Below are positions 3,091-64,000 of a stretch of 64,000 nt of DNA, in pieces. Origin of the DNA: an uncultured Gammaproteobacteria bacterium (lineage in GTDB: Bacteria > Patescibacteriota > Patescibacteriia > Magasanikbacterales > UBA922). The position numbers and the translations under genes were made by a program. The stretch covers positions 539,264 to 603,263 of the forward strand of contig CAYFPM010000001.1 in assembly GCA_964345045.1 (NCBI GenBank). Direction: 5' to 3'. The notes under the pieces were generated by a model. It saw only the letters and a list, made by a program, of their open reading frames with translations. It ran no database searches and was not told where the DNA came from. Each line of letters begins with the position of its first letter. Position 1 is the first letter of the stretch.

Positions 3091-3285
3091 AAACTAAAAG
3101 TTGTTTGAGTTTTCTAAGTTTACTAAGTAACTAAAATAAAAAACTTAGTTAACTAAATAAACTTAGCCAACCTAGCAAACTTAGAATAAGTTATCCCCAT
3201 ACTACCCACTTTTTACCCAAAAATCAACCCTTGCCAAGAATATAGATTGCTGATAATGTGCCTATACAACCAAACACATTTATTG

Positions 3286-12736: not shown

Positions 12737-13114
12737 TCAAGACCTAGTTGACTCTAAAATATAAAAACAATCTTCAAGGCATTGCAGTACTGTTTCCCTT
12801 TCAAATAAAACTTCATCATTTAAAAACCTTATTACTACATACCCCTGACTACGCAAATGTAATTCTCGCCAAGTGTCATATTCTTTTTGTTCTTCATGAA
12901 TTGGGCCATCGACTTCAATAATAAGCCTCAACTCATGACAATAAAAATCTACAATAAATCTGCCAATGCTAACCTGCCTACGAAACAAATAACCAACTTT
13001 TTTGTTTCGCAATTCTTGCCACAAAACGCATTCAGCTTTAGTATTATTTCTTCTTAAGGATCTTCTTTTAAATTTTAATTCTTCGTCTTTTACATTACGC
13101 GTTCTTTTCTGCAT
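12737..13114 (-). CDS. DUF559 / Vsr-like endonuclease domain protein
   Basis: ECVLWQELRNKKVGYLFRRQ...FIVDFYCHELRLIIEVDGPIHEEQKEYD matches DUF559; flanked by GC-rich palindromes at 12702-12725 and 13149-13169. Confidence 0.8.
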   Translation of the reverse strand: MQKRTRNVKDEELKFKRRSLRRNNTKAECVLWQELRNKKVGYLFRRQVSIGRFIVDFYCHELRLIIEVDGPIHEEQKEYDTWRELHLRSQGYVVIRFLNDEVLFERETVLQCLEDCFYILESTRS

Positions 13115-16127: not shown

Positions 16128-16311
16128 AGGTTTAAAAGCCTGCCTGCCGGTAGGCAGGGCTAAAAAAGCTTGCAAGGCTGGCTGATTTATAATAGTTAAC
16201 TGGACTAGCTTAGCACTTTTTTGGCTCTGTGTCTATGGGTAGAAAAATTACTTTACCCTTGACAAAGTGGCTTATTTATGATAAAAATTTGTCAGGAGGC
16301 TCGTCAATTAC

Positions 16312-16509
16312 ATGACTACCAAATGCAATTCTTGCGGACAAAATAGCAAAGGACATATTTGCAAGAGATGCAAGCACAAAAAAGGACTCGCAAAAGGCAA
16401 CCGCAGATGCAACTGCAGAATCTGCCAAGCTCTCAGAGCCGAAACCCACCATGAGTGGCTCGAGTGGAGAAAGCCATTCGACGTACGACAAGCAAGTCCG
16501 CATCAATAG
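16312..16509 (+). CDS. Cys-rich zinc-ribbon mini-protein (CxxC-x8-CxxC plus extra Cys); GC-rich island gene
   Basis: SD AGGAGG at 16295-16300; TTGACA at 16259. Confidence 0.4.
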   Translation: MTTKCNSCGQNSKGHICKRCKHKKGLAKGNRRCNCRICQALRAETHHEWLEWRKPFDVRQASPHQ

Positions 16510-16659
16510 ATACCACAGGAGGTAGGAGGACTACCCCCGTGCGCCCCCCTTTTCTCCCCCCCTTCGCGCACCCATCCAAAAACAATCCCCCGAATTATCG
16601 GGGTTTTTTATTTGACTTTTTTAAATTAATTAGAAAAAATAACTTGGGGAGTAATACTC

Positions 16660-16887
16660 ATGAAAATTTGTGAACTTTGCGGACATCCAAATAATGATGA
16701 AGCCAGATTTTGTGCTGGTCAAATTCGAGACGAAGTCCTAAGAGGCGTGATCAGATCCTGCCGCCACAAACTTGGGGGCACCCAAGATACTGGCTGCGGC
16801 TGCCAAACTTGCAACTATACGGCCGCCCAAAGGAATGAGGGCAACAAATCCAGGTTTGGTTTGGATGGTTCGCTGAGAGTACGATAA
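16660..16887 (+). CDS. Cys-rich zinc-ribbon mini-protein (CELCGH...RFCAG, CGCQTC); GC-rich island gene
   Basis: SD GGGGAG upstream; followed by the 16592-16615 hairpin + T-run region. Confidence 0.4.
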   Translation: MKICELCGHPNNDEARFCAGQIRDEVLRGVIRSCRHKLGGTQDTGCGCQTCNYTAAQRNEGNKSRFGLDGSLRVR

Positions 16888-16982
16888 ATCAGACTCACAC
16901 ACTCCAAGGAGGAAAAATCAATCAAATTATAGTTATTTACAAAAATATTTAATTATTGCTATATTATTTGTGGAGGTTTGGG

Positions 16983-19318: not shown

Positions 19319-21205
19319 ATGAATCTACTATACGAGAATTTAAAAAGCAACCCAATTGTCTATGTAACTCGAGATATCGAGCGGGCTTTGGGTTTGCCGG
19401 TAGACACACAAGGCTACTATATTATCTCAAACTCTACTCCCTTTGCCAAGAAAATTGCTAACGAAAGAAAAAATATTTTACTGGTAGAAAATAGCGAAAT
19501 TCTAGACACTTGGCAACTATTGGAAAAACCAGAAACCCAAACCTGGATAGAAGCAATCCAACCCTCCCCCCTTGTAGGGGGGAGCAAGAGGGGGGTAAAG
19601 TCAATCGTCGCCTTCAAAAACTCCAAAAAAATAGAAACTATTTGTGAAAAAAATAATTGGGATCTACTAAACCCCAGTGCCGAAGTAATCCAAAATATAG
19701 AAGGTAAAGTAACCCAAGAAGAATTCCTACCAGAACTCTCTCATCTTTACCCACCACATACAATTTCAGAACTACAAACTACAAACTACAAACTACAAAC
19801 TATCTTACAATTCAACCACTCCCACACTGGAGAAGGCACAATATTGCTTGATAATAAAAAAGAATTGGAAGAGTTAAAAAACAAGTTCCCAAAACGTGAG
19901 GTTCGTCTTACAGATTTTGTAAATGGCCAAGTTTATACCAACAATAACGTAGTAGCAAAAAATAAAGTTTTGGTTGGTAATATTAGTAAACAACTAACCG
20001 GCATTAAGCCTTATACAAATAATCCTTTTGCAACTGTTGGTAACGATTGGGGGGCAGCTGTAGATGAACTAAGTGAAAAGCAAGAAAATGAATTCGCCAA
20101 AATTGCCCAAAAAGTTGGTGAAGAATTAAGAAAGAAGAATTGGAAAGGACTGTTTGGAATTGATGTAATCGTAGAAAAAGAAACTGGTAAATTGTACTTA
20201 ATTGAAATAAATGCCAGACAACCACAGTCAGCGGTTTTTGAATCGGCCTTACAGCGAAAAGCGGAAAGCGAAAAGCAAAAAGCGATAACTATTTTTGAAG
20301 CTCATTTGGCAGCTTTGCTAAATTTGGAAGTTAATCTAGAATTAGTTGAAATTGCAGAGGGTTCACAAATTATTGATAGACGAAATGAAGATATAAAATA
20401 CGTCCAAAAACCTGCTATTAGCTTCCAGCCTTTAGCTTTTCGCTCTAATCAAACAACCCTTTCAAAAAAAGGACAATCTGTCTTAAACAACTACCTCCAC
20501 CTCCCCTTCCAAAACACTCAACCAAAAACTCCATATTTTAATAATAAAAAAAGCAAAGTTCGTGGGGGGCTTCGAGCGCTTATAGGCAAAGGTAGTCCAA
20601 CAGAGATTGTAGAAGAAGCCAAAATATTAGCTTTGAAAAAAAAAGTTGATTTTAATAAGTTAGATGAAAAAACTTTAACTAAATTTTTGGTAGACCATAA
20701 TATTGGGGTAGACTGTTCTGGATTTGTTTATCATGTTTTAAAAGCCGAAAATCCTGAAAAAATAAAAAACTTAAAATTTTCTAAATCAAAAAACCCCATC
20801 AGAAATTTTATTCGCAAATTCCGCCCAACCGAAAACACTAGTGTAAAAGTTTTGGCAGATGATAAAAATAGTAAAAAAATAGACTTAAAAGACGTACAGC
20901 CAGGTGACTTGATTACCATAATTGCCGCTGGAAAGAATGCCGATCGTGATCATGTGCTTTTGATAGACGAGGTACAAAAAAATTCTTTTGGTGAAATCAC
21001 TTTTGTGAGGTACACCCACTCACTCGACTGGAGTACCGATGGCAAATACAATCACGGCATTCGCCAAGGAACTATTGAAATTAACGATATAAACAAACCA
21101 CTTATCGAGCAGCATTGGATAGAAAGTGAAAAAACTGGCCAAGAAAACGAAACTTACGGTAGAACCCTAAGTGGCCAAACTTATCTAAGGCGTTTAAAAT
21201 ATTGA
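19319..21205 (+). CDS. fusion protein: ATP-grasp ligase domain + C-terminal NlpC/P60-like cysteine peptidase domain
   Basis: GLFGIDVIVEKETGKLYLIEINARQ (ATP-grasp); GVDCSGFVYHVL ... DHVLLIDEV (Cys/His pair); carries an in-frame GC hairpin and a 7-nt tandem repeat. Confidence 0.5.
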   Translation: MNLLYENLKSNPIVYVTRDIERALGLPVDTQGYYIISNSTPFAKKIANERKNILLVENSEILDTWQLLEKPETQTWIEAIQPSPLVGGSKRGVKSIVAFKNSKKIETICEKNNWDLLNPSAEVIQNIEGKVTQEEFLPELSHLYPPHTISELQTTNYKLQTILQFNHSHTGEGTILLDNKKELEELKNKFPKREVRLTDFVNGQVYTNNNVVAKNKVLVGNISKQLTGIKPYTNNPFATVGNDWGAAVDELSEKQENEFAKIAQKVGEELRKKNWKGLFGIDVIVEKETGKLYLIEINARQPQSAVFESALQRKAESEKQKAITIFEAHLAALLNLEVNLELVEIAEGSQIIDRRNEDIKYVQKPAISFQPLAFRSNQTTLSKKGQSVLNNYLHLPFQNTQPKTPYFNNKKSKVRGGLRALIGKGSPTEIVEEAKILALKKKVDFNKLDEKTLTKFLVDHNIGVDCSGFVYHVLKAENPEKIKNLKFSKSKNPIRNFIRKFRPTENTSVKVLADDKNSKKIDLKDVQPGDLITIIAAGKNADRDHVLLIDEVQKNSFGEITFVRYTHSLDWSTDGKYNHGIRQGTIEINDINKPLIEQHWIESEKTGQENETYGRTLSGQTYLRRLKY

Positions 21206-21279: not shown

Positions 21280-22410
21280 ATGCCAATTTCCCCAGACAAT
21301 CTAGAATTACTCAAAATAGCCATTGGATTTGGCTTATTTTCGTCTATAATCGCCTTTTTGTGGGCGCCTCTTTTGATTAAATTTTTGTACAAATACAATA
21401 TCACTCGCTGCGCCGAATACGACGCTACCCTGGCTATGGGTGCCAGAAAAGGCAAAACCGGTGTGCCAGTTATGGGAGGCTTGCTTATAGTTATCACAGT
21501 TTTGGTAATCACATATCTATTTAACTGGGAACGTAGCTTTACCTGGATGCCTATTGGCGTAATGATGCTGTCTGCTTTCTTGGGTGGGATTGACGACCTA
21601 CTCAACATCTACGGTCACAAACGTCGCCACCGCAATTTCAAACAAACTTTACGCCTAATTCGGGTACACAAACACTGGCACTATCGCTTGTGGCTAGCCA
21701 TTACCCTACCATGGACCATGTTCAAACGTATGTCACTTTGGCTAGGTTCTCACCCTGGCAAAGGTATACATGTACACGAAAAACTTATTTTACAATTCGC
21801 TGCCGGGGCTATTGCTGCTTGGTGGATTTACTTCAAACTTGGAGAAGAATGGTTAAATGTTTTTATTCCATTCGACGGCTTTATCTATTTTGGTTGGCTT
21901 ATCATTCCGCTTATTATTTTCTTTGTTATGTTTACTGCCAACGCTGTAAACGTAGCCGATGGTATGGATGGTCTAGCTGGAGGATCACTCCTAGTTACTT
22001 TTGCTGGACTTACTTTGCTTAGCTGGCTAGAGGGTTACCAAGAAATGGCTATTTTGAACGCTACGGTAGTTGGCACACTGATTGCCTATACTTATTTCAA
22101 TATCAAACCAGCCAGATTCCAAATGGGAGATGTGGGCAGCCTAGCCCTAGGTTCGCTACTTGCCATCAACGCTATTATTATCAACCGCATGCTCTTACTT
22201 CCTTTTTTTGGTTTTATTTTTTATGTAGAGCTAATCACTGTTATTATCCAAGTTTTTGGTCGTCAATTTTTGGGCAAAAGAATTTTCAAAATGGCTCCAA
22301 TTCACCATCACTTTGAAATGCGTGGCTGGAGTGAAGAAAAAACAGTAATGCGTTTTTGGATTATGCACATTGCCTTTGTCCTCTTGGGGCTTTGGGTAGC
22401 GCTTTACTAA
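21280..22410 (+). CDS. mraY: phospho-N-acetylmuramoyl-pentapeptide transferase MraY (with a basic His-rich loop insert)
   Basis: NAVNVADGMDGLAGG and APIHHHFEMRGW signatures. Confidence 0.85.
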   Translation: MPISPDNLELLKIAIGFGLFSSIIAFLWAPLLIKFLYKYNITRCAEYDATLAMGARKGKTGVPVMGGLLIVITVLVITYLFNWERSFTWMPIGVMMLSAFLGGIDDLLNIYGHKRRHRNFKQTLRLIRVHKHWHYRLWLAITLPWTMFKRMSLWLGSHPGKGIHVHEKLILQFAAGAIAAWWIYFKLGEEWLNVFIPFDGFIYFGWLIIPLIIFFVMFTANAVNVADGMDGLAGGSLLVTFAGLTLLSWLEGYQEMAILNATVVGTLIAYTYFNIKPARFQMGDVGSLALGSLLAINAIIINRMLLLPFFGFIFYVELITVIIQVFGRQFLGKRIFKMAPIHHHFEMRGWSEEKTVMRFWIMHIAFVLLGLWVALY

Positions 22411-22749
22411 GCAGAGTAAGCAAATTAGGCAGAATAAGCAGAATAACAAAACACTTAGTCTGCTTACCAACTTAATCTGCTATGTCAAAGACTTTTAAAA
22501 TATCTATCTTAATAATTTTTCTGCTAACCGGAGTTGTTTTCCATACAATTGGGAAACAAGCTTGCCCTCTAAATGACTACACACCTGGTAAATGTGAAAG
22601 ATCTTTATATTTGTAAATTAAAGGTTTTTAAAACAAAAGAACAAGCTCAAAAAGAATATGATGAGGCCGTTAAAAATCATTTTATAGGTGAAGTAACCAG
22701 ACCAACCGAGGACATAAAAAGATGTACTCATATACTTTCTTTCTAAATT

Positions 22750-26189: not shown

Positions 26190-26363
26190 AAATTAAAAGT
26201 ATTATATTAAATTAAGTAAAGTTTATCATTATTGAGAAAAATATCAAGATTATATACCAGTAAATAAGCAGAGTAAGCAGAGTAAGAATTAAGACATTTC
26301 GTTACTTACTCTGCTTATTACTTACTCTGCCTACTCTGTTCACCTTGCCTAAAAATTTTTAAT

Positions 26364-26398
26364 TTCGTATATTCGTACTATTCGTAATTCGTAGATAC
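26364..26398 (+). promoter_or_regulatory. four tandem TTCGTA repeats (spacing 9/9/7) ending 5 nt before the ATG at 26399
   Basis: read directly in the sequence; the same arrangement sits upstream of infB. Confidence 0.4.
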
Positions 26399-27280
26399 AT
26401 GAAAACTCCTCAACAATCCTACCCAGAACTAGCCAAAGCCTTGGGACTAAAAGAGGTTTTTTTGAAACGCGAAGATTTGCACAAATACCAATCTCACAAA
26501 GGGAGATCTATTCCCACCATGATAAAAAATTATGCCAAAGCTGGTTATAAACAGTTTGTAATATCTAGCTCTGGCAATGCCGCTCTAGCGGCAGCTCTGG
26601 CTACCAGCCAACACAATAAAAATAATCCTGGCAAAGAAATCAAACTTACTATTTTTGTAGGAGAAAAAATAGACCAAACCAAACTCACAAAAATCAAATC
26701 ATTGATTACTGATCATTGTTCGCTGATCTCTGCCGAGCGTCCCAAACAAGCCGCTTTTCAAGCTGAAAAAGAAAACCCAGAAACAGTCAAAAATTTACGC
26801 CAATCAACCGATGACTTGGCTCTAGAGGGCTATATATCTCTAGCCCAAGAACTGTGCAAAATAGAAAATATTAGCGCAATATTTTTGCCAACATCTTCTG
26901 GCACTACAGCCGAAGCCCTTGCCAATTACTTTGTAGAGAATAATAAAAAAATACAACTCCATATAGTACAAACAAATTTTTGTCATCCAATAGCAAAAAA
27001 TTTTGACGAGGAAGACCTAGAAAAATCTTCACTAGCCTCTGCTATAGTAGACAATGTTGCTCATCGCAAAAACAAAGTAGTAGAACTAATAAAACAAACT
27101 GGTGGCTTTGGTTGGATAATAAATGATAACGAGATAATAGAAGCCCAAAAACTGGTAAAAATTACCACAGGTATAGAAATCTCTGCCAATAGCGCCCTGT
27201 CTATTGCTGGATTAAAAAAAGCCGCAAAAAGCGGCTTTGATTGCGGCGAGGTTGTCGCCTGTATTATTACCGGTCGGTAA
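26399..27280 (+). CDS. PLP-dependent enzyme of the tryptophan-synthase-beta fold (threonine/cysteine synthase-like)
   Basis: FLKREDLHKYQSHKGRS resembles the PALP lysine motif; glycine-rich loop LPTSSGTTAEA. Confidence 0.55.
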   Translation: MKTPQQSYPELAKALGLKEVFLKREDLHKYQSHKGRSIPTMIKNYAKAGYKQFVISSSGNAALAAALATSQHNKNNPGKEIKLTIFVGEKIDQTKLTKIKSLITDHCSLISAERPKQAAFQAEKENPETVKNLRQSTDDLALEGYISLAQELCKIENISAIFLPTSSGTTAEALANYFVENNKKIQLHIVQTNFCHPIAKNFDEEDLEKSSLASAIVDNVAHRKNKVVELIKQTGGFGWIINDNEIIEAQKLVKITTGIEISANSALSIAGLKKAAKSGFDCGEVVACIITGR

Positions 27281-36874: not shown

Positions 36875-37330
36875 ATGAAAAGACAAGAATCTTACAATAT
36901 ACAGGATACACTACATATAGGTGAATCCGCAAGCCAACAATTACAAGGGGGTGATATTGTGTTACTACATGGTGATTTGGGAGCAGGCAAAACAACTTTT
37001 GTAAAAGGTTTGGCCAAGGGGCTGGGAATAGAAGCAAACATTGTTAGCCCTACTTTTACGATTATGAATGTATATGATATTAATCACAAAAACCTAAAAT
37101 CATTAAACCATAAAAGCATTAAAACATTGGTTCATGTAGATACATACAGGTTGGAGGATGAAGAAGAACTGGTAAAAATAGGAATAGAAGATTACCTGGG
37201 CCAACCAGATACGATTTGTATAATCGAATGGCCGGAAAAAATTCCAAATTTGCTAAAAGATAAAAAAATGAAAAATATTTATCTATCTCATACAAAAAAT
37301 GAAAATAGAGTTATAAGTTTTGATTATTAA
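36875..37330 (+). CDS. tsaE: tRNA threonylcarbamoyladenosine biosynthesis protein TsaE
   Basis: HGDLGAGKTTFVKGL ... SPTF. Confidence 0.8.
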   Translation: MKRQESYNIQDTLHIGESASQQLQGGDIVLLHGDLGAGKTTFVKGLAKGLGIEANIVSPTFTIMNVYDINHKNLKSLNHKSIKTLVHVDTYRLEDEEELVKIGIEDYLGQPDTICIIEWPEKIPNLLKDKKMKNIYLSHTKNENRVISFDY

Positions 37331-38444: not shown

Positions 38445-39722
38445 TTATTTTTTATCTTTTCTATCTTTTATATAAGTTGTCCACCTAGTTTTTGGAGAAG
38501 CAAAATAGTTTTTGTTTTGTAATTCTTTTGGCAAATAACTTTGTTCTACTTCTCCATCATAATCTGGATTATACTTGTATCCTTTGCCATAGTCCAGATC
38601 TTTCATTAATTTGGTGGGAGCATTGCGCAGGTGTAGTGGTACGCCAAGGTGAGAAGTGCGTCTGGCATCCATGGAGGCTTCTTCGTAAGCTTTGTAAAGC
38701 AAGTTCGATTTTTGTGATTTGGCACAATAAACCACCGCTTGAGCCAAATGTACATTGCATTCTGGATAACCCAACTTGTGAGAAGCATCATAAGCGGTAT
38801 TGGCTTGTACCATAGCTTCGCTATTGGCCATACCAATGTCTTCGCTAGCAAAACGAAGCACCCGTCTGGCAATATAGATTGGATCACAGCCACCTTCAAA
38901 CATCCTAGCCAACCAATAAAGTGCTGCATTGGCATCACTTCCACGCATAGATTTGTGGAGAGCAGAAATAAGATTATAAAATTCTTCTCCTTTTTTATCA
39001 AAAATCAAATGAGTTCTTTGCAAAGCTTCTTTTATATCGTCTTTATCTAAATTAATTTTTGATTTTAGACTTTTGATTTTAGATTTAACAGCTAGATCCA
39101 ATCCATTCAAGGCTACTCTAGCATCTCCATTAGAAAGTTCTGCCAATAATTCTATAACTTCTTTATCGATCTCAATTTTATAATTTCCTAATCCATTTTC
39201 TTTATCTTTCAAAGCTTGTTCAATTACTTGCAAGATATCTGCTACTTCTAGACTCTTCAAAACAAAAACTCGAGAACGAGAAAGAAGAGCTCCTACAATT
39301 TCAAAAGAGGGATTCTCTGTAGTGGCGCCGATCAATACCACTGTCCCCTTTTCTACATGGGGCAAGAGGGCGTCTTGCTGCACCTTGCTCCAGCGATGAA
39401 TTTCGTCTACAAAAAGTACGGTTTTTTTATTTTCTATTCGCAGTGACATTTCTGCTTTTTCTATCACTTTTCTTAATTCTTTTTTGCCACTATCCACTGC
39501 CGAAAGTTGTACAAAATCAGCTTGTGTTTCTTTGGCGATTATCCTAGCCAGGGTTGTTTTGCCTACTCCTGGAGGTCCCCAAAATATTATGGATGATAAC
39601 TCATCATTTTCTATTAACTTTCGTAGTAACCTCCCCTCACCCACAATTTCAGCCTGCCCAAAAAACTGCCCAAAATGGGCAGGACGCATTCGATTGGCCA
39701 GAGGTTGATTGGTGTTTTTCAT
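38445..39722 (-). CDS. rarA: replication-associated recombination protein A (RarA/MgsA AAA+ ATPase)
   Basis: GPPGVGKTT Walker A and a MgsA-like C-terminal domain. Confidence 0.9.
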
Positions 39723-44141: not shown

Positions 44142-45599
44142 TCATAAATATATTTTTTTATAAAAAACAAACGACCAAATATACAAAAAAATCATCACCC
44201 AAACAGAAATAGAAAAGTCATAAGCAGCAAATGGCAAGCGAGCAAAAAATTCCACTACCAAAGTCACATACTTCATACCAAGCCACCCAACCCAAGCCAA
44301 TACCAAACCAAAAGGTTCAAAGACAAAAGCCGCAAATACAGCCAAAAATCCAACTAGCATAATCCAAGGAATAAGCCAAAGAATAAGTACATTTACAATT
44401 GGGGCAACAAAAGACAATCTCCCAAATTGATAGAGAATAAGTGGTAAGGTAATCGTAATAGCCGAGATAGTTGAAATAAAAGATTCTTTTAGACCCATAA
44501 ATTCTGGAATACTCCTAAATCTCTTTTCCAAAATAGGGTTAAAATAAACCAAACCAATAGTAGCCAAAAAAGATAGTTGAAACCCCGCATCCCACACCAA
44601 CACAAATGGATTGTGTAGGGTCATAACTACAGCAGTAAGGGCCATGGCATTGGCTACTTTATTTCTTCGACCCATTTGCCTGGCGAGAAGCACTAGCACC
44701 CCCATAATCCCTGCTCGCACTACCGAAGCACTAGCTCCGGCAAAAATCACAAATAATATTATCCCCAAAACAATTAGCCAAAAAGCTTTTTTTCTATTTA
44801 TTCGTAAGTTAACAAAAATCGCCATCAAAATGCTGGCTACAATAGTAATGTTGTAACCAGAGATGGCAATAATATGCGTAACCCCCGTAATGTTGAATAA
44901 TTCATTCAAGCTCCCCAGCCCCCCACGATAACCATAGAGCAGCCCCGCCATAAACCCAGCATATGGCTCGTGCCATAGCTGATTTACTTTGCTAGCAACA
45001 GTATTTTTTACTGCAAATACTCCAGACAACACTACGTTCCCCTCCCCTGTCCCTATTTTCTCTATTTTTGGATTTCTACAAATAGCAAACACCCCAAAAT
45101 TGGCCAGGTACATATCGTAGCGAAAGTTATCTATTGGCTCTGGATTTTCTAATTTGCAAGTCAACTCCAACTCATCACCATATTTGTATCTCGGGTATAG
45201 TTGTGATTTAAAGTACAATTTCCTTTTGATTCTGTTTACTGTTTTCTGTTCACTGTTTACTAAAACAATGTACCGAACCCCATATTGCCGTACATCCGGC
45301 TCAGACGAGATATAGCCTGTTATAGTTTCTTTATTTTCCGGTAGTTTAAAATCCTTTGGTAATGCAAAGTTATATCTGGTAAAACCAACGAGAGTAATTA
45401 GTAAACAGTAAATAGTGAACTGAATCTTCTTGTCATCTTTGTAAATAAAAACAAAAGCTACCAAAATAAAGGCAGCCAAGTATATAAAAACGAAATCTAT
45501 TTTTTGATTGATAAGAGATGCTATGGCTATACCAATAAGAAAAAAAAAGCAAAAAGTTAGGAATGTTTTTGATTTGCTGTTTATGATGCCCTTTAACAT
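44142..45599 (-). CDS. comEC: ComEC/Rec2 DNA-uptake channel, membrane (DUF4131 + competence) portion
   Basis: polytopic membrane protein with ComEC-typical segments. Confidence 0.75.
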   Translation of the reverse strand: MLKGIINSKSKTFLTFCFFFLIGIAIASLINQKIDFVFIYLAAFILVAFVFIYKDDKKIQFTIYCLLITLVGFTRYNFALPKDFKLPENKETITGYISSEPDVRQYGVRYIVLVNSEQKTVNRIKRKLYFKSQLYPRYKYGDELELTCKLENPEPIDNFRYDMYLANFGVFAICRNPKIEKIGTGEGNVVLSGVFAVKNTVASKVNQLWHEPYAGFMAGLLYGYRGGLGSLNELFNITGVTHIIAISGYNITIVASILMAIFVNLRINRKKAFWLIVLGIILFVIFAGASASVVRAGIMGVLVLLARQMGRRNKVANAMALTAVVMTLHNPFVLVWDAGFQLSFLATIGLVYFNPILEKRFRSIPEFMGLKESFISTISAITITLPLILYQFGRLSFVAPIVNVLILWLIPWIMLVGFLAVFAAFVFEPFGLVLAWVGWLGMKYVTLVVEFFARLPFAAYDFSISVWVMIFLYIWSFVFYKKIYL

Positions 45600-45617: not shown

Positions 45618-45935
45618 TCATTCCCGCGTACGCGGGAATCCAGTTAGCAAATCATTACCACTCAAGTCCACCCAGTTAGGATTATCTTTTTCAATCAACT
45701 CAACCTTCCAAGCTCGATTCCACTTTTTCAATTGTTTCTCCCTTTTTATGGCATCATTAATACTGGGATACACTTCATAGTAAACCAACATATGGACATT
45801 ATATTTTTTGGTAAAGCCTTCATTCCTACCAAAAGAATGCTCAACCATTCTTCTGGATAAGTTATTAGTAACACCAATATAAAGCGTACCATTACGCTTA
45901 CTTGCTAAAATGTAAACAAAAAAATCCCTCCTCAT
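45618..45935 (-). CDS. GIY-YIG nuclease family protein (UPF0213-like)
   Basis: FFVYILASKRNGTLYIGVTNNLSRRMVEH; its C-terminal FPRTRE is encoded by a GC palindrome. Confidence 0.8.
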   Translation of the reverse strand: MRRDFFVYILASKRNGTLYIGVTNNLSRRMVEHSFGRNEGFTKKYNVHMLVYYEVYPSINDAIKREKQLKKWNRAWKVELIEKDNPNWVDLSGNDLLTGFPRTRE

Positions 45936-45985: not shown

Positions 45986-48900
45986 CTATACAACAACACT
46001 CACCAACCTCCCCTTCACATAAATCACCTTTTTCGGTTCTTTGCCCTCTAGCCATTTTATAACATTCTCTTGTTCTAGAGCTGTTTTCTTCACTTCTTCT
46101 TCACTAATTTCGGCTGGCACTTCTATAGTCGCCCGTACTTTACCATTTACCTGCACCGCGATTTTGACTACATCGTCGACTATTTTTTCTTTGTCATACT
46201 CTGGCCAAACGGATAGTGAAACAAATTCTTCAAATTCAAACATACCCGCAATCTCTTCGGCCAAATGCGGAGCAAATGGAGCCATTAATTTTTGCATGGC
46301 AATAACTGAACTGTAGTTCACTGTAGGAACTTCCTTAGTTCCAATATTCTTTCTTAGGATCATCAATTGGCTCACGGCAGTATTGAATCTCATTCCATCC
46401 AAATCTTCACCAATCTTCTTGATAGATTTGTGCAAAAGCTTTTCAAATTCTGGATTATTCTCACCCATGTACTCCCCATTTTTGTAAACTGCAAAATTGT
46501 CCCCTATATTTTCTTTTAGCTCTGCAAAGTAATCGTACCAACGATCCAAAAATCTGCGTACCCCTTTTACCCCGTCATCATTCCACGGCTTGGTCTGTTC
46601 TAGCGGCCCCATAAACATCTCGTAGGTACGCAAAGTGTCGGCTCCAAACTCATTAACTACATCAGTGGGGTTAATCACATTACCCCAGCGTTTACTCATC
46701 TTTCTATTATCTTCTCCCAATATAAGTCCTTGATGACGATTCTTGGTAAATGGCTCATCGAAATCAATGTAACCTGCATCAAATAAAACCTTGGTAAAAA
46801 AACGTGAGTATAAGAGGTGTCCATTGACATGCTCTTCTCCACCTAGGTAAAAATCTACTGGCATCCAAGCTTTCAAACTTTCTGGAGAAGCAAATTCATT
46901 TTCATTGTTTGGGTCTAGGTAACGGAAGTAATACCAAGAAGAACACATAAATGTATCCAATGTGTCTACCTCGCGCTTCCAACCTGCACCATATTTTTCC
47001 TCTACTCCTTTTTGAAATTCTTCGGAATATGTAAGTGGAGATTGACCAGTTGGTTTAAAATCTACGTCGCTTGGGAGTAATACTGGGAGATCTTTTTCTG
47101 GAACTGGTTTCAAACCAGAAACAAATACTTCTTCCAAAATTGCCGGCTCTACCAAACCAGTCAAATGATCTTCGTTTGCACTGGCATACACTACTCTTGC
47201 ATCAAAGATATTTACTTGTTCGTCTATTTGTTCTTTTTTGATTATAGGATAATTTTTGTCTGCAATAACAACTGTTTCTTGTGGTAAATCTTTTATTGAA
47301 GCAAAATCAAATTGTAATTTTGCTTCATCACGAAATTCTCTTTCTTTTCCATCATTAAATTCTGGTCTTAGCATGGTATCTATCAATACCAATTTGGCAA
47401 TAGGCTGTTTGGTTTTTGCCAAAAGATGAAATGCCACTGGACCACCATGGCTATGAGCTACCACAACGGTATCTTTGTCCAATTTTATATTTTCAAATAA
47501 ATAATTGGCCTGTTCTGTGGCATTTGGTATTTCTGTATTTGGCAAATCTAGCACCACAACTTTGTGACCTTTTGCTTCTACTTGTGCTTTTAACCACGGC
47601 CAAAAATCTGACTCTGCTGTACCACCTCGTCCATGAATAAAAACATATTGTCTTTTGCTCTCTGCTTCTTGTTCATTGACCAGAATTGGCAATGGTGCTC
47701 CCCAAAAACGCTGGCGAGACACAGACCAATCGCGGAGTTTGTATTGAACTTTACTTTCTCCGTAACCACCATCTACAATCTTTTGCAAAATCTTTTTTCT
47801 ACCTTCCTCATAATCAAATCCATCAAATTCTTCTGAATTTATCAATTTAAACTTCTTTTTGTCTTTTTTTATCTCTGCGTAGCTTACAAACTCTTCTTTT
47901 GAATCCACCACACTTATAACTTCCAAACCAAACTTCTTGGCAAATTCATAATCACGTTCGTCTGCTCCAGGCACAGCCATAATAGAACCAGTTCCATAGG
48001 TAGCCAAAACATAATCTGAAATCCACACTGAAATTTCTTTACCGTTTATAGGATTAATAGCTTTTATTCCCTTTAGTTCTACTCCGGTCTTTTCTTTTTG
48101 GGTTTGTCTATCTAATTCTGTTTTCTTGGAAGTTTCTTTTATATACTTTTCAACTTCATCAATATTTTCAACAATTGTTTCTTGTTTCTTGCCTGCCCCG
48201 TTAGCTTGTCTTTCGGGGTTTCTTGTTTCTTCGAGAAGCGTAGCGACGAGCTCATGCTCTGGTGCCAAAACCATAAAAGAAACTCCGTAGATAGTGTCGT
48301 GAGCGGTGGTAAAGACTGGAATTCTGAATTCTGAATTCTGAATTTCAAAATCAATCTCTGCTCCTTCCGAACGCCCAATCCAATTCCTCTGTCTCATCTT
48401 TGTCTCCTCTGGCCAATCAATCTTATCAAGATCTGCCAAAAGTCTGTCGGCATAATCAGTAATTTTCAAATACCATTGCTCCATTTCTTTTTGCACTACC
48501 ACGTCATCACTACGTTCACACTTACCATCTACCACTTGCTCGTTGGCCAGAACTGTTTTACAACCATCACACCAGTTTACACTTTGCTTTTTTCTATAAG
48601 CCAAACCACGCTCGTACATAAGAAGAAAAAACCACTGGGTGAATTTGTAATACCCAGGATCAGAACTACGCACAAACCTATCCCAATCAACCGAAATTCC
48701 AAGAGACTTTACTTGAGACACAAACATCTCACCAGTTTTGTCGATAGTTTCTCTGGGGTGTACATTAGTCTTAATTGCATAATTCTCGGCTGGCAAACCA
48801 AAAGAATCCAAACCAAAAACTTGAAGGACTTTCTTACCCTTCATACGCAAGTAACGAGCATAAATATCGCAGGCAGTATAAACCTCGGCATGGCCTACAT

Positions 48901-49048
48901 GCAGCCCAGATCCAGATGGGTACGGCAGCTGTGGCAGCACATAAGCTTTGTTTTCGGGGGTAGCATCGGCTGGAGTCTTGAACACCTCTTCTTCTTCCCA
49001 TATCTCTTGCCACTTAGCCTCTATCTCTTTTGGGTTATATTCTTTCAT
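45986..49048 (-). CDS. leuS: leucyl-tRNA synthetase with an inserted YdeN/RBBP9-like serine hydrolase domain
   Basis: HVGH class-I motif, CP1 editing domain, KMSKS; residues ~458-645 (YVFIHGRGG...DFWPW...VVAHSHGG) match the Ser_hydrolase fold. Confidence 0.95.
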   Translation of the reverse strand: MKEYNPKEIEAKWQEIWEEEEVFKTPADATPENKAYVLPQLPYPSGSGLHVGHAEVYTACDIYARYLRMKGKKVLQVFGLDSFGLPAENYAIKTNVHPRETIDKTGEMFVSQVKSLGISVDWDRFVRSSDPGYYKFTQWFFLLMYERGLAYRKKQSVNWCDGCKTVLANEQVVDGKCERSDDVVVQKEMEQWYLKITDYADRLLADLDKIDWPEETKMRQRNWIGRSEGAEIDFEIQNSEFRIPVFTTAHDTIYGVSFMVLAPEHELVATLLEETRNPERQANGAGKKQETIVENIDEVEKYIKETSKKTELDRQTQKEKTGVELKGIKAINPINGKEISVWISDYVLATYGTGSIMAVPGADERDYEFAKKFGLEVISVVDSKEEFVSYAEIKKDKKKFKLINSEEFDGFDYEEGRKKILQKIVDGGYGESKVQYKLRDWSVSRQRFWGAPLPILVNEQEAESKRQYVFIHGRGGTAESDFWPWLKAQVEAKGHKVVVLDLPNTEIPNATEQANYLFENIKLDKDTVVVAHSHGGPVAFHLLAKTKQPIAKLVLIDTMLRPEFNDGKEREFRDEAKLQFDFASIKDLPQETVVIADKNYPIIKKEQIDEQVNIFDARVVYASANEDHLTGLVEPAILEEVFVSGLKPVPEKDLPVLLPSDVDFKPTGQSPLTYSEEFQKGVEEKYGAGWKREVDTLDTFMCSSWYYFRYLDPNNENEFASPESLKAWMPVDFYLGGEEHVNGHLLYSRFFTKVLFDAGYIDFDEPFTKNRHQGLILGEDNRKMSKRWGNVINPTDVVNEFGADTLRTYEMFMGPLEQTKPWNDDGVKGVRRFLDRWYDYFAELKENIGDNFAVYKNGEYMGENNPEFEKLLHKSIKKIGEDLDGMRFNTAVSQLMILRKNIGTKEVPTVNYSSVIAMQKLMAPFAPHLAEEIAGMFEFEEFVSLSVWPEYDKEKIVDDVVKIAVQVNGKVRATIEVPAEISEEEVKKTALEQENVIKWLEGKEPKKVIYVKGRLVSVVV

Positions 49049-53843: not shown

Positions 53844-53992
53844 ATATATTCATTAAAACTTTAAAATATTAAAGCATTAAAACAACTGCTTTATTTGTTC
53901 CTAGTCTATACCTCCTAAAATTAGTACGCAAGTGTTAATAAAATCCCCTCCCCTTTAGAAGGGGCGGGTTAGGGTGGGGTTATTCAATATAA

Positions 53993-56075: not shown

Positions 56076-58106
56076 TTACTCTTCCTTAAACTCAATCTTT
56101 CTAATCTTGGATTCTTCGGTGTAAAATTCTAGCACATCACCCACTTCTATTTTTACTTTACCTTCGTAACGCATACCACACTCGGTTCCGCTTGGGACTT
56201 CTTTTTCGGTTTGTTTACCAATTTGCAAGTTTGTAACCTTGCCCAAACCAATTTCTTCACCATCGCGTTTTACTCGAACTTGAGCATCTTTTTTAATCTT
56301 ACCACTCTCGACTCTACCACCTACGGTCATAGCTTTTTTCTCGGTTCGGAAAATAGCCATTACTTTCAAATTTCCCAGTTCGGTAACAATCTTTTCGTGT
56401 TCTAATAATTTTTCTAATTCTTCTTGAGTCCATTTGATAAGGTCATAAATAACTTGAAACTGTAAAAAATTAACTCCTTTTTCTCGCATAGACTCTTCGG
56501 CCATTGGAGTTGGATTAACATGAAAACCAATCACATGCGCTTTTCCAGCTTCGGCTTTGCTGATATCTGATTCATTGATATTTCCCAAACCTTTTCCAAT
56601 AATCTTAATAGCCACTTCGTCGTGTCTGATTTTTTCTAGTGAACCAATAATCGCTTCTAGCGAACCAAGCACATCGGCTTTTATAAGCAAGTTCAAATTT
56701 TTCTTGCCTTCTTCATCTTCACCAGAATCATCACTTTGCAAAACTACGCTAGTTTTTTGCGCTCCGGTCATTTGGCTGTGTTTTTGTTTTACATCAATTT
56801 TTTCTGCGGTTTCGGCTTTGGCTACGTTTAGGATATCTCCTACTTCCGGAGCTACTTTAAAACCAATAATCTGTACTGGCACAGCTGGACCAGCTTCTTC
56901 TATTTGATTACCCTTGTAATCTTTCATGGCTCTTACCTTGCCATAAATTTCGTTGTTTACTACTAGTGGATCATTTTTCTTTAGGGTTCCGGCTTGTACC
57001 AAAATAGTGGCCACCGGGCCTACGTTTTTGTCTTTGTGAGATTCAATCACAGTACCCACAGCTGGGATACCGGCATCGGCTACTATGTTTTCTCCATTCA
57101 TATCGGCCATTAGCAAAAGCACATCTAGAAGTTTATCTATATTTATTTCGTTCTTGGCAGAAATTTCTACCATTGGCACGTCTCCGCCCCAATCTTCGGC
57201 TTGCACACCTTTGCCACTAAGTTCGGTTTTTACTTTTTGTACATCGGCAGTGTCTTTGTCGATTTTGTTAATAGCTACTACAAATGGTAGTTTGGCAGCT
57301 TTGATAATTTGGATTACTTCTTCGGTTTGTGGTTTTACCCCATCGTCGGCAGCTACTACCAAGATAGCCATGTCGGCGACTTTGGCACCACGGCTACGCA
57401 TAACTGTAAAGGCTTCGTGACCTGGAGTATCGATAAAGGTGAGGGCTCTTTCTTCTTTGCTTTTTGGATCTTTCCAAACTGTTTGGTAAGCCCCAATGTG
57501 CTGGGTAATTCCTCCGGCTTCGGTATCTATAATATTGGCTTTTCTAATGGTGTCTAGTAATCTGGTTTTTCCGTGGTCTACATGCCCCATCACTACTACT
57601 ACCGGAGATCTGGTGGCTTTGTTTTCTCCTTTTGCCAAAGCATCTTCTAGGACTTCACTTTTTTCTGTTTCTTCTTCTACATTTTCTTCATTTTCTCTAT
57701 TTACAGTAAAACCCAAATCTTCGGCCATAATAGAAGCAGTTTCTATATCCAAGTTTTGGTTTTGGTTGGCCAAAATTCCGTTTTTCATAAGCTCGGTAAT
57801 TACTTGAGCTACAGACATATCTAGTCTTTCGGCAAATTCTTTTACTGTAAGTAAATTTGGCAAAGTTACGGTCTTTCCCATTTCTCTACGCAATTCTTTT
57901 TCTTTTTCTTTACGTTCTTCTTCGGCTTTGCTTTCTTGGGCTTCTATTTCTCTTTTTATGTGTCTCCAACGACGCATTATGGTATTGGCCACTTTGTCGT
58001 CTATCTTAATAGCTTTGGCTCCAATATCAAAACCATGCTTAGGTAATATTTCTAGCATTTTTTTGGGATGGACACGGAGTCTTCTGGCGAGTTCGGTTAC
58101 ATTCAT
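56076..58106 (-). CDS. infB: translation initiation factor IF-2
   Basis: GHVDHGKT G-domain plus the IF-2 C-terminal domains. Confidence 0.95.
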   Translation of the reverse strand: MNVTELARRLRVHPKKMLEILPKHGFDIGAKAIKIDDKVANTIMRRWRHIKREIEAQESKAEEERKEKEKELRREMGKTVTLPNLLTVKEFAERLDMSVAQVITELMKNGILANQNQNLDIETASIMAEDLGFTVNRENEENVEEETEKSEVLEDALAKGENKATRSPVVVVMGHVDHGKTRLLDTIRKANIIDTEAGGITQHIGAYQTVWKDPKSKEERALTFIDTPGHEAFTVMRSRGAKVADMAILVVAADDGVKPQTEEVIQIIKAAKLPFVVAINKIDKDTADVQKVKTELSGKGVQAEDWGGDVPMVEISAKNEINIDKLLDVLLLMADMNGENIVADAGIPAVGTVIESHKDKNVGPVATILVQAGTLKKNDPLVVNNEIYGKVRAMKDYKGNQIEEAGPAVPVQIIGFKVAPEVGDILNVAKAETAEKIDVKQKHSQMTGAQKTSVVLQSDDSGEDEEGKKNLNLLIKADVLGSLEAIIGSLEKIRHDEVAIKIIGKGLGNINESDISKAEAGKAHVIGFHVNPTPMAEESMREKGVNFLQFQVIYDLIKWTQEELEKLLEHEKIVTELGNLKVMAIFRTEKKAMTVGGRVESGKIKKDAQVRVKRDGEEIGLGKVTNLQIGKQTEKEVPSGTECGMRYEGKVKIEVGDVLEFYTEESKIRKIEFKEE

Positions 58107-58114
58107 AAGGTATA

Positions 58115-58144
58115 TACGAAATACGAAATATACGAAAGTACGAA
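58115..58144 (-). promoter_or_regulatory. four tandem TTCGTA repeats (gene orientation; spacing 8/9/7) ending 8 nt before the infB ATG
   Basis: read directly in the sequence. Confidence 0.4.
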
Positions 58145-58245
58145 ATTTTGTATTTTATTTTTAAAAAGTGAGTATTATAATTTACCTGATTGTATCTAAA
58201 TTTAGCGAAAAAGTCAAGATTAGGCTTTGGCCAAGTAAAAATAGC

Positions 58246-58275
58246 TTGACATTATTATATTTTTAATGATAAAAT
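58246..58275 (+). promoter_or_regulatory. sigma70-like promoter TAGCTTGACA-N18-TAAAAT driving a ~200-nt structured leader
   Basis: read directly in the sequence; shares the TAGCTTGACA context with the 565-593 promoter. Confidence 0.4.
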
Positions 58276-58380
58276 TTTTCACTATGTATTTTTTGGAGGC
58301 TCTGCATGGCTATATGTGAGTTTTCATTTTTATTAAGAAGACTTAATTGTTCTTTACAGGATAGATAGGAATAAAAAATA

Positions 58381-61665: not shown

Positions 61666-61880
61666 ATATTTTAGTAATTAGGTGATTAGTAATTAGGTGG
61701 TTAGGTTAGCGTAATATTAACAAAAAGGCAAGCATCTCACAATGTTTAATTTTTAATTATTATTGTCATCTCGAGGAGAGTCCTCAGACTCGACGAGAGA
61801 TCTTTCTGTCTAATTATTTTGCCAACGGAAAGATTTCTCACCCTAAGGGTTCGAAATGACAGTATAACAAATCAGCCGAG

Positions 61881-63376: not shown

Positions 63377-64000
63377 ATGCAGAGTCAATCTACAAACAAC
63401 TTATCTGGATTTTTGTTAGTAAACAAACCTGTCGATTGGACTAGCCATGATGTGGTTGGATATATCCGAAAAATTGTTAGAGAATTTTACAAAAAAAATA
63501 ATTTGCCAGACAAAGCAAAAAAAGTGAAGGTGGGCCACGCCGGCACTCTAGATCCATTTGCTACTGGCCTGCTTATAGTAGCCATTGGCCGCGAAGCCAC
63601 CAAACGAATTGACGAGTTTAAAAATCTGAAAAAAGAATATGTTACTACTTTGCAACTTGGAGCCACTTCCGATACTCTCGACAGAACAGGAGAAATAAAA
63701 CAATGGAACAATGGGACAATGGAAAAATTACAAACTAAGTTAAAAGAGCTGGATAAGAAAAAACTTACAAAAGTATTAAAAGAATTCATTGGAAAGCAAA
63801 CCCAAATCCCTCCCATGTACAGTGCCAAAAAAGTTGGTGGTAAAAAACTTTATGAGTTGGCTAGAAAAGGAATAGAGATTGAAAGAAAACCTTGTGAGAT
63901 TGAAATATATGATATTAAACTTTTGGAATTTCCAAGTCATCCTGATCCGCCGCAGGCAGAGAAGGATCCCAGTGGCAGTCCAGAGAGATCCTTCGTTAGC
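63377..64000 (+). CDS. truB: tRNA pseudouridine(55) synthase TruB (partial, runs off the window end); carries a GC-rich in-frame element at its 3' end
   Basis: manual translation MQSQSTNNLSGFLLVNKPVDWTSHDVV ... KVGHAGTLDPFATGLL; not in the ORF track because it has no stop. Confidence 0.85.
   Translation, partial: MQSQSTNNLSGFLLVNKPVDWTSHDVVGYIRKIVREFYKKNNLPDKAKKVKVGHAGTLDPFATGLLIVAIGREATKRIDEFKNLKKEYVTTLQLGATSDTLDRTGEIKQWNNGTMEKLQTKLKELDKKKLTKVLKEFIGKQTQIPPMYSAKKVGGKKLYELARKGIEIERKPCEIEIYDIKLLEFPSHPDPPQAEKDPSGSPERSFVS

Follow-up and report, generated by a model that had tools for sequence, protein, structure and literature searches.

What do two unrelated genes on opposite strands have in common when the same repeat abuts both of their start codons? 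This question is raised by a 64,000-nucleotide stretch of contig CAYFPM010000001.1 (assembly GCA_964345045.1, positions 539,264–603,263; hereafter, the window), in which an array of four TTCGTA hexamers (hereafter, the quad) immediately precedes both infB, encoding IF-2, and a gene for a pyridoxal phosphate (PLP)-dependent enzyme. The window IF-2 is 65%–75% identical to Magasanikbacteria proteins, placing the contig in Magasanikbacteria (Patescibacteria); the sequence derives from metagenome ERR2281803. The initial annotation regarded the arrays as a functional cis element in the leaders of these two genes, possibly a translation-initiation enhancer or the site of an RNA- or DNA-binding protein. 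Our analysis favours a different origin: the arrays are probably orphan arms of an undescribed, widespread family of tiny (ca. 0.45 kb) selfish cassettes resembling the intervening sequences (IVSs) of rRNA genes. The layout of intact cassettes, their predicted stem, the co-variation of arm and encoded protein and the insertion of the quad between conserved neighbours, all shown below, carry this reading.

Spacing, polarity and distribution of the quad

Both arrays were located as annotated and consist of exact hexamers in the form TTCGTA-NN-TTCGTA-NNN-TTCGTA-N-TTCGTA. Units are spaced 8/9/7 in each copy; the annotated value was right for infB, whereas the 9/9/7 given for the PLP-gene copy was wrong. 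The arrays do end 5 nt (PLP gene) and 8 nt (infB) before the ATG, and neither gap contains a Shine–Dalgarno (SD) sequence, although most window genes likewise lack one. The corresponding pattern, TTCGTANNTTCGTANNNTTCGTANTTCGTA, had two matches without mismatch in the window, where shuffled sequences predicted 0.00, and no further match with up to three mismatches. The next-best window sites carried at least 8 mismatches in 24 positions and were no more frequent than in shuffled sequence. Therefore, the window holds no degenerate TTCGTA family beside its two perfect copies.

An exact search for the pattern in a species-representative genome collection matched more than 115 stretches, from which 163 copies were analysed. 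They came from Magasanik-, Moran-, Uhr-, Komeili-, Taga-, Sungii- and other Patescibacteria and from metagenome-assembled genomes (MAGs) of Bacteroidota, and all lay between or within protein-coding genes. The repeat unit is polar and 30–34 bp long, with four (A/T)TTCGTA heptads spaced 8/9(10)/7 and a lineage-specific 3-nt flank after unit 4 (TCC, GAG/GGA/GAT, AAG or CAT); the PLP-gene copy represents the ATTCGTA subtype, which is common in Parcubacteria-type genomes. The spacing was 8/9/7 in 151 copies and 8/10/7 in 10, and five-unit forms occurred in 6. Spacers were nearly free (91 combinations in 144 copies) and hexamers exact; the AT-rich quad was exact even in Uhrbacteria loci of 57%–59% GC. 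Such invariance of hexamers and spacing together with free spacers is a signature of protein recognition; the quad is probably recognised by a protein or an RNase, in line with the binding site initially proposed.

The proposal of a functional element rather than a chance repeat was also borne out, since the number expected was 0.00 and the element has a fixed polarity towards the neighbouring open reading frame (ORF). In 89 copies the ORF was closer to the 3′ end of the quad, and in 31 to the 5′ end (p = 1e-7); among solitary copies alone, the counts were 23 and 5 (p = 9e-4). The shared orientation relative to two genes, from which function had been argued, holds for the window pair, but is not a rule of the family: among 121 intergenic copies in other genomes, 58 had a start codon as 3′ neighbour and 63 a convergent gene's stop codon, so that the 3′ end faces both about equally. 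Stop codons within 30 nt lay on the side of the 3′ end in 56 cases and of the 5′ end in 7 (p = 1e-10), and the corresponding counts for an ATG were 30 and 7. Partner hexamers in reverse orientation lay on the 5′ side 310 times versus 7 times on the 3′ side; exact pairs were tail-to-tail in 17 cases and head-to-head in none, and the predicted folding energies of arm pairs lacking an ORF were −35 to −73 kcal/mol. Genes downstream of quads were heterogeneous (infB, tuf, rpoC, atpA, dnaK, pyk, ribosomal protein genes, tgt and others). Whole quads also form tandem arrays with periods of 40/40/41/58/95 nt (L068 6568–6863, L075 3516–3667, L003 7090–7364, L114 4719–4922, L087 4757–5701; L numbers denote loci). 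In L068, 6.5 copies lie between the stop codon of the upstream gene and the tuf promoter, and the L075 array precedes rpoC. The TACGAA strand is stop-free in all frames.

The Bacteroidota loci are genuine, as indicated by a T9SS CHU_C domain and a TonB-dependent outer-membrane protein. In contrast, cross-phylum spread into Gammaproteobacteria was rejected. RpoD at locus L017, from a 'Gammaproteobacteria' MAG, is 66%–81% identical to Magasanikbacteria RpoD, and therefore these labels of third-party annotation (TPA) records are unreliable, at least for L017. Patescibacteria-type genes were observed throughout the TPA 'binchicken'/SRP MAGs labelled Gammaproteobacteria (L005, L009, L017, L029, L040, L042, L087, L089, L098, L113 and others), and probably also occur in TPA MAGs labelled Bdellovibrionales or Saccharibacteria. 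An origin from phages or plasmids was rejected as well, with 0 matches in 2.9 million viral contigs and none in plasmids; two Vibrio phage matches at E = 0.05 were marginal. A literature search for 13–14-mers of the repeat yielded no match.

Intact cassettes and the two window loci

An intact cassette spans ca. 0.45–0.5 kb and consists of a left arm (TACGAA ×4), a gap of 0–6 nt, a GxxExxY ORF of ca. 130 amino acids, a gap of 0–5 nt and a right arm (TTCGTA ×4). In L080, L092, L098 and L114, inverted quads bracket such an ORF, with quad 5′ ends 0–6 nt from its ATG and stop codon and quad 3′ ends 4–10 nt from the next host ATG. The arms measure 32 nt in L080 (with 1 nt between left arm and ATG and 2 nt between stop codon and right arm), 35 nt in L098 and 36 nt in L092, and the unit number varies, as 3 or 5 units also occur (the arm of L027 has 3 units, that of L045 has 4). 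The fetched loci contained 10 GxxExxY ORFs, which match TIGR04256/PF13366 and have a PD-(D/E)XK fold. Their flank complementarity (55, 53, 46, 38, 30 ... 10) exceeded that of 516 small control ORFs (median 14, 99th percentile 36; p = 8e-5); 4 of the 10 surpassed the control 99th percentile, and those bracketed by TTCGTA quads scored 30–55. For the RNA of the L080 cassette, both minimum-free-energy and centroid structures predicted a terminal stem of ca. 31 bp enclosing the ORF (z = −3.6).

Other GxxExxY genes (L023, L037, L122, L124) have arms of related words (ATCCGCGT, ATCCNGAT, ATTCGTT/ATCCGTT). At an orthologous intergenic site with 93%–94% identical flanks, the insert in L049 is a TTCGTA quad with a further 103 nt, and that in L037 is a GxxExxY gene whose arms are of the ATCCNGAT type and lack TTCGTA; this site appears to be an insertion hot spot for different cassette types. 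As an independent test, plasmids and chromids of cultured bacteria were searched with the GxxExxY protein only. All eight genes found were flanked by arrays of three to four short words, five with inverted arms and three with direct arrays. The inverted arms occurred in Sphingomonas (25 nt, 92% complementary), Bacteroides finegoldii (30 nt, 90%), Bernardetia (28 nt, 86%), Treponema and Gemmatirosa. In Sphingomonas parapaucimobilis (L135, NZ_CP155749.1 482837–483265), a GxxExxY gene with arms of TTCGCGNN ×3 (a TTCGCG word) is separated by 33 nt from the preceding fabD and by 2 nt from the following fabG; this cultured bacterium offers a tractable system for experiments. Genes for four-helix-bundle proteins (TIGR02436/PF05635) showed the same arrangement, with word-array arms bracketing 4/4 (L049, L055, L076, L078), for example ATTGTT ×4 / AACAAT ×4 in L055. 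No 23S_rRNA_IVP gene adjoining a TTCGTA quad was found; the arms of such genes are built from other words.

Arm word and protein clade co-vary. Identity is 39%–67% among TTCGTA-armed proteins and 25%–41% between these and the others, and each of the two CTCTGTG-armed proteins has the other as its closest relative (55%). The proteins of L092 (labelled Parcubacteria) and L114 (Bacteroidetes) share 67% identity and the same arms. The function of PF13366 is listed as unknown, and 'multiple transfers' between divisions have been described for it (PMC3424549). A sequence search found no solved structure for GxxExxY, and a literature search found no work on its mobility.

At the PLP-gene locus, the intergenic region between the lysW-like ORF (−) and the PLP gene (+) is 43–75 nt long and motif-free in 3/3 relatives, and 209 nt long in the window (Table 1). 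The expansion consists of the quad and a tail-to-tail AGTAAGCAG/CTCTGCTTA word-array pair, the latter with an architecture like that of TTCGTA pairs but a different word. Because the LysW-like ORF and the PLP gene are conserved neighbours, the quad was inserted between them, and the expansion was counted as an insertion character of the window copy. The second word family (TAAGCAGAR / CTCTGCTTA, period 9) was observed at two places in the window, in one of them as this tail-to-tail pair (hairpin). Its word resembles the CTCTGTG arms of the GxxExxY genes in Bacteroides finegoldii and Bernardetia, and a similar word was also seen in L038 and L123.

At the infB locus, orthologous leaders lack the quad in six of seven relatives (IF-2 70%–72% identical). 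The sole relative with a quad, L121, is the closest (IF-2 75% identical); its quad lies 7 nt before the ATG and has a degenerate unit 4. In the alignment of the window with L121, the quad is nearly identical, while the remainder of the leader is unalignable. Two of the quad-less leaders bear other fourfold tandem words abutting the ATG (L123 TTGCNNC, L126 CCTAYAA). A metagenome scan with IF-2, in which low-complexity peptides were used as the query, yielded only three distant loci. A promoter equivalent to the sigma70-type infB promoter of the window is present at infB of all seven relatives. Since this promoter lies 5′ of the quad, the infB copy probably resides in the mRNA leader, a possibility that the initial annotation had considered. 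The 5′ untranslated region (UTR) would be roughly 85 nt. The infB transcription start is predicted near 58181. The infB leader including the quad folds no better than shuffled sequences (z = 0.01).

Table 1. Positions of the two quads, their host genes and other features in the window.
Feature	Position	Strand	Remarks
TTCGTA quad, infB copy	58115..58144	-	TTCGTA-CT-TTCGTA-TAT-TTCGTA-T-TTCGTA, then TATACCTT, then ATG; solitary right-arm type; units start at 58144/58136/58127/58120 in gene orientation
TTCGTA quad, PLP-gene copy	26364..26393	+	TTCGTA-TA-TTCGTA-CTA-TTCGTA-A-TTCGTA, then GATAC, then ATG; solitary; units start at 26364/26372/26381/26388
infB (IF-2)	56076..58106	-	host gene; start codon (ATG 58106) 8 nt from quad 3′ end
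infB promoter, sigma70-type	58189..58217	-	TTGACT-17-TACAAT; 44 nt upstream of quad
PLP-dependent enzyme gene (PALP, PF00291)	26399..27280	+	host gene; ATG 26399 5 nt from quad 3′ end
LysW-like zinc-ribbon ORF, 54 aa	26025..26189	-	divergent; neighbour of PLP gene in all relatives
Second repeat element	26264..26338	.	tail-to-tail inverted 9-nt word arrays, AGTAAGCAG x2.4 ... TTACTCTGC x3
TAAGCAGAR / CTCTGCTTA array	22408..22470		begins at stop codon of ORF 21280..22410, then an inverted unit
TTTTAATG x4	53851..53884		ends 7 nt before ATG 53843 (-)
CACCTAATTACTAAT x2.3	61671..61706		ends 4 nt before ATG 61665 (-)
CTAAGTTTN x5	3108..3184		before ATG 3090 (-)
Tandem arrays within ORFs	48319-48344, 37089-37128, 63699-63728, 19770-19802, 20253-20285, 45232-45261, 39055-39086		7-8-nt words
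leuS	45986..49048	-	1020-aa product with inserted alpha/beta-hydrolase domain of ca. 190 aa
GIY-YIG nuclease gene	45618..45935	-	stand-alone; next to leuS
DUF559 (Vsr-like) nuclease gene	12737..13114	-	stand-alone; preceded by CCTCC/GGAGG word hairpins
Promoter upstream of short ORF	58246..58275		TTGACA-18-TAAAAT
SD region of short ORF	58295..58308		strong GGAGG 6 nt before ATG 58306; short ORF upstream of NhaA gene (GTG 58486)

Probable orphan arms and alternative readings

If the window arrays are orphan arms, the cassettes would spread horizontally as units of protein plus arms. Once the ORF is lost, the two arms would remain as a tail-to-tail pair, which further loss would reduce to a single arm; in the window, right arms alone would persist, beside the ATGs of infB and the PLP gene, a position that right arms also have in intact cassettes. 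A sequence-specific factor, most simply the encoded PD-(D/E)XK GxxExxY protein, may read the hexamers and their spacing, and RNase III could excise the cassette from host transcripts, as in rRNA IVSs. The window arms are solitary and cannot form a stem; they would act at most as an unstructured, G-poor spacer before two SD-less start codons. The polarity of the family is accounted for, because the outer (3′) ends of the arms abut host ORFs, and so are the pair layout and the singles, because the exclusively tail-to-tail pairs would be cassettes without an ORF.

Several observations weigh against this reading. Among 115 loci, themselves selected for the quad, there were only four intact TTCGTA-armed cassettes and two rearranged ones, and the 64-kb window contains no GxxExxY gene, its copies having neither ORF nor partner. 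The spacers of paired arms are complementary at chance level only (0.54 versus 0.52), and therefore stem formation alone cannot explain the conservation. Solitary arms, with free spacers and exact hexamers, look selected rather than decaying. Likewise, the infB copy is retained in L121 next to an unalignable leader, where a remnant should decay. Perfect hexamers and the persistence of the infB arm thus call for selection on an arm or host function or for recurrent homing to the site. Single in-frame copies occupy loops of UvrB, LeuRS (twice), TsaE, Tgt and a glycosyltransferase (that is, quads within uvrB, leuS, tsaE, tgt and a glycosyltransferase gene), which simple cassette decay leaves unexplained, and deletion of the cassette interior does not explain the tandem arrays of whole quads with a 40–41 nt period (L003, L068, L075). 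Furthermore, no target-site duplication was found flanking intragenic or intergenic copies, and flank BLAST found no empty/filled site pair.

Of the alternatives, the best placed is still unlikely: (UUCGUA)4 could act as an unstructured, U-rich standby or S1-binding site that replaces the SD sequence in SD-poor organisms. CAA-rich direct repeats of the tobacco mosaic virus omega leader are known to enhance SD-independent translation. The scarcity of SD sequences in the window and the unstructured infB leader are consistent with such a role, as are ca. 30 copies elsewhere that end 4–30 nt before an ATG in sense orientation. Different fourfold words often abut the ATG in orthologous infB leaders, as in L123 and L126, and the region upstream of atpA bears TTCGTA ×4 in L073 and L099 and AACAAT arrays in L102. 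However, equally many copies face convergent stop codons (63 versus 58), where the mRNA reads UACGAA; stop-adjacent copies are antisense 56 versus 7 times, and sense placement within ca. 20 nt upstream of starts is not the rule. Copies in frame within ORFs and copies upstream of a promoter (L068) do not fit either, and the exact hexamers, the 8/9/7 spacing across two phyla and the bracketing of GxxExxY genes would be left unexplained. Most orthologous leaders also lack the quad, which was present at infB in 1/7 relatives and at the PLP gene in 0/3. An enhancer belonging to infB and the PLP gene, as initially suggested, should have been shared by these orthologues, and the gene-specific leader interpretation is mostly wrong. 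Judging from sequence, the quad might still have a local effect on the translation of infB or the PLP gene.

We consider it quite unlikely that the quad is the operator array of a host DNA-binding regulator controlling the adjacent genes, with four heptads of 7–9 bp period bound cooperatively as by MetJ, omega or ParG. MetJ binds 8-bp metboxes, and the ribbon-helix-helix proteins omega and ParG bind 7–8-bp repeats. Invariant hexamers and spacing with free spacers would be expected of such sites, the infB site is kept between the window and L121, the AT-rich quad is exact in GC-rich Uhrbacteria loci, and 6.5 copies lie just upstream of the tuf promoter in L068. Nevertheless, the downstream genes form no coherent regulon, and orthologous promoters lack the quad. 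Its position relative to promoters varies (in the 5′ UTR at infB, upstream of the −35 element at tuf in L068, after stop codons and within ORFs), and graded weaker sites are missing, the window having two perfect copies only.

An independent element of the repetitive extragenic palindromic (REP)/REPIN or miniature inverted-repeat transposable element (MITE) type would be mobilised in trans by a REP-associated tyrosine transposase (RAYT) or an insertion sequence (IS) transposase, and its adjacency to GxxExxY genes would be coincidental, reflecting shared permissive sites. We regard this as improbable. It would agree with a dispersed multi-copy family of singlets, inverted doublets and clusters, with the site that holds a quad in L049 and a GxxExxY gene without TTCGTA arms in L037, and with the ca. 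95% of analysed copies that have no adjacent GxxExxY gene. In contrast, a single quad is not palindromic, target-site duplications were not found, and neither a transposase nor Y1_Tnp was among the 25 most frequent families listed for 150 small ORFs of the loci, although such a listing could hide a single-member match. Moreover, the arms lie within 0–6 nt of GxxExxY ORFs, with scores above the control 99th percentile, and the arm word follows the protein clade. Finally, independent origin of two similar tandem repeats by chance or local replication slippage has virtually no probability: although other 7–9-nt tandem arrays abound in the window, shuffles predict no match to the quad pattern, and the identical irregular spacing recurs in both copies and in more than 150 copies of other genomes.

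Further identities were rejected. The quad is not a promoter, as it bears no −35/−10 likeness, −10-like hexamers occur 3′ of it at no fixed distance, and canonical TTGACA-17-TATAAT promoters are present separately. The idea that the two window copies (26364 ... 58144) delimit a composite transposon was rejected because the PLP gene retains its lysW-like neighbour in all relatives. A replication-oriented site does not fit, since both orientations occur on one replichore with GC skew negative throughout. The density is far too low for a DNA uptake or uptake signal sequence (USS/DUS, ca. 1 per kb), with two copies in 64 kb; ca. 3 quads were found in 185 kb of relatives fetched irrespective of the motif. 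Rfam gave no gathering-score match in the window and only chance-level matches (E up to 10) around both sites, and the window contains no rRNA or tRNA.

Known systems, other window features and implications

Returning to the orphan-arm reading, the closest counterpart of the cassettes is the 23S rRNA IVS. In Coxiella, the IVS is a selfish element of 428 nt that has an S23p (PF05635) ORF, terminal inverted repeats that form a 28-bp stem cut by RNase III, and tandem heptamers directly upstream of the ATG whose number varies among strains; cleavage of the stem by RNase III is known for Coxiella and Leptospira (PMC4990558). The cassettes and these IVSs share a size of ca. 0.43–0.48 kb, a small ORF of unknown function that decays over time, terminal inverted repeats with a stem of ca. 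28–31 bp around the ORF (for the cassettes, as predicted from sequence) and tandem heptamers of variable number abutting the start codon. The PF05635/TIGR02436 protein is itself bracketed by arms in L049, L055, L076 and L078. Unlike the IVSs, the cassettes lie between or next to protein-coding genes rather than in rRNA, the TTCGTA type carries a GxxExxY PD-(D/E)XK ORF instead of S23p, and arms are dispersed as orphan pairs, singles, in-frame copies within ORFs and tandem arrays.

Similarities to other repeats are more partial. REP/REPIN sequences with their IS200-like RAYTs are likewise multi-copy extragenic repeats of ca. 30 bp that occur as singlets, inverted doublets and clusters, flank a cognate gene and lie near stop codons. 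However, a REP is an imperfect palindrome, whereas the quad consists of four direct repeats and does not fold, is common to two phyla and sometimes lies inside ORFs; its associated protein has a PD-(D/E)XK fold and is not an HUH Y1 transposase. ISs, MITEs and solo terminal inverted repeats share the arrangement of left inverted repeat, ORF and right inverted repeat, internally deleted derivatives (tail-to-tail pairs), solo ends and outer ends abutting host sequence. In contrast to these, no target-site duplication and no known transposase family were found, the bracketed ORF being GxxExxY (PF13366); the cassettes are far smaller than any IS, and their arms are arrays of three to five short words. 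The short tandemly repeated repetitive (STRR) heptamers of heterocystous cyanobacteria (e.g., PMC2670836) are likewise tandem 7-nt words in intergenic regions beside genes and can form hairpins when inverted. Similar arrays are abundant in the window. Unlike STRRs, which to our knowledge have not been linked to any protein, the quad has a fixed irregular spacing, free spacers and exactly four units, and thus was copied as a unit rather than grown by slippage. Rickettsia palindromic elements are also selfish repeats tolerated in frame within conserved protein genes, but they are palindromes of 100–150 bp restricted to Rickettsia. The 11× (G/U)AG sites of TRAP, MetJ metboxes and omega/ParG arrays combine short identical words and short spacers near a start codon or promoter, and the MetJ, omega and ParG operators further share tandem 7–9-bp words, invariant recognition bases and free spacers. 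Those systems define regulons at fixed promoter or ribosome-binding-site positions, whereas the quad occurs equally after opposite-strand stop codons and inside ORFs. The element is not a REP, a MITE or a member of any Rfam family and is best filed as a selfish cassette of IVS-like type that lies outside rRNA and has orphan derivatives resembling REPs and MITEs.

Other repeats were noted in the window and in related genomes. Three further word arrays precede start codons in the window, and perfect or near-perfect 7–8-nt tandem arrays of ca. 26–40 nt occur within leuS, tsaE, a truB-like gene, ORF 19319..21205 (twice) and others (Table 1). The tsaE array occupies the same loop as the TACGAA quad in TsaE of L005. 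A GC-rich palindrome, CCTGCCTGCCGGCAGGCAGG, recurs in Magasanikbacteria intergenic regions (L012, L068, L071, L078, L105, L122) and looks like a separate REP-like family. A hairpin, CTCCCTTTTCCAAAGGGAG, lies directly 5′ of the TTCGTA quad in two unrelated MAGs (L014 ca. 1760–1780; L073, reverse complement, upstream of atpA). The hydrolase insert of the window LeuRS recurs in L124 (993 aa) and L125 (981 aa) and is missing from L121 (826 aa), and leuS is split in L122. The L121 LeuRS (14410–16890) has two repeat-derived insertions, namely KLRTSNSKLRTEI in the zinc-binding region and a TACGAA quad (DIRNTKDTKLRNT) before the FTTRPDT motif. Most window genes have no SD sequence, and many have a TTGACA-17-TATAAT promoter just 5–15 nt from the ATG, suggesting that their mRNAs have no leader or a very short one. 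The short ORF upstream of the NhaA gene, which has a strong SD sequence and lies downstream of a promoter, may encode a leader peptide.

As a broader and more tentative proposal, GxxExxY (PF13366) and four-helix-bundle/S23p (PF05635) genes could be the cargo of a single superfamily of IVS-like mini-cassettes located mainly outside rRNA, with clade-specific tandem-word arms recognised by the encoded protein and PD-(D/E)XK serving as a homing or transposition nuclease. In Patescibacteria and Bacteroidota, orphan arms such as the quad might then be a major source of UTRs with tandem words, of hairpins between cistrons and of peptides inserted in frame, and could be exapted as SD-independent leaders. 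If the cassette reading is correct, it would provide the first functional context for two very large uncharacterised families, TIGR04256 GxxExxY and TIGR02436 four-helix bundle. Genome annotators would need to be cautious, as such repeats next to start codons would not be regulatory leaders of those genes. The origin of many tandem-repeat leaders, intercistronic hairpins and repeat-encoded peptide loops in candidate phyla radiation bacteria would be explained, and IVS-type selfish elements would represent a general, horizontally moving class that reaches beyond rRNA and resides between, and sometimes within, the housekeeping genes of streamlined genomes.

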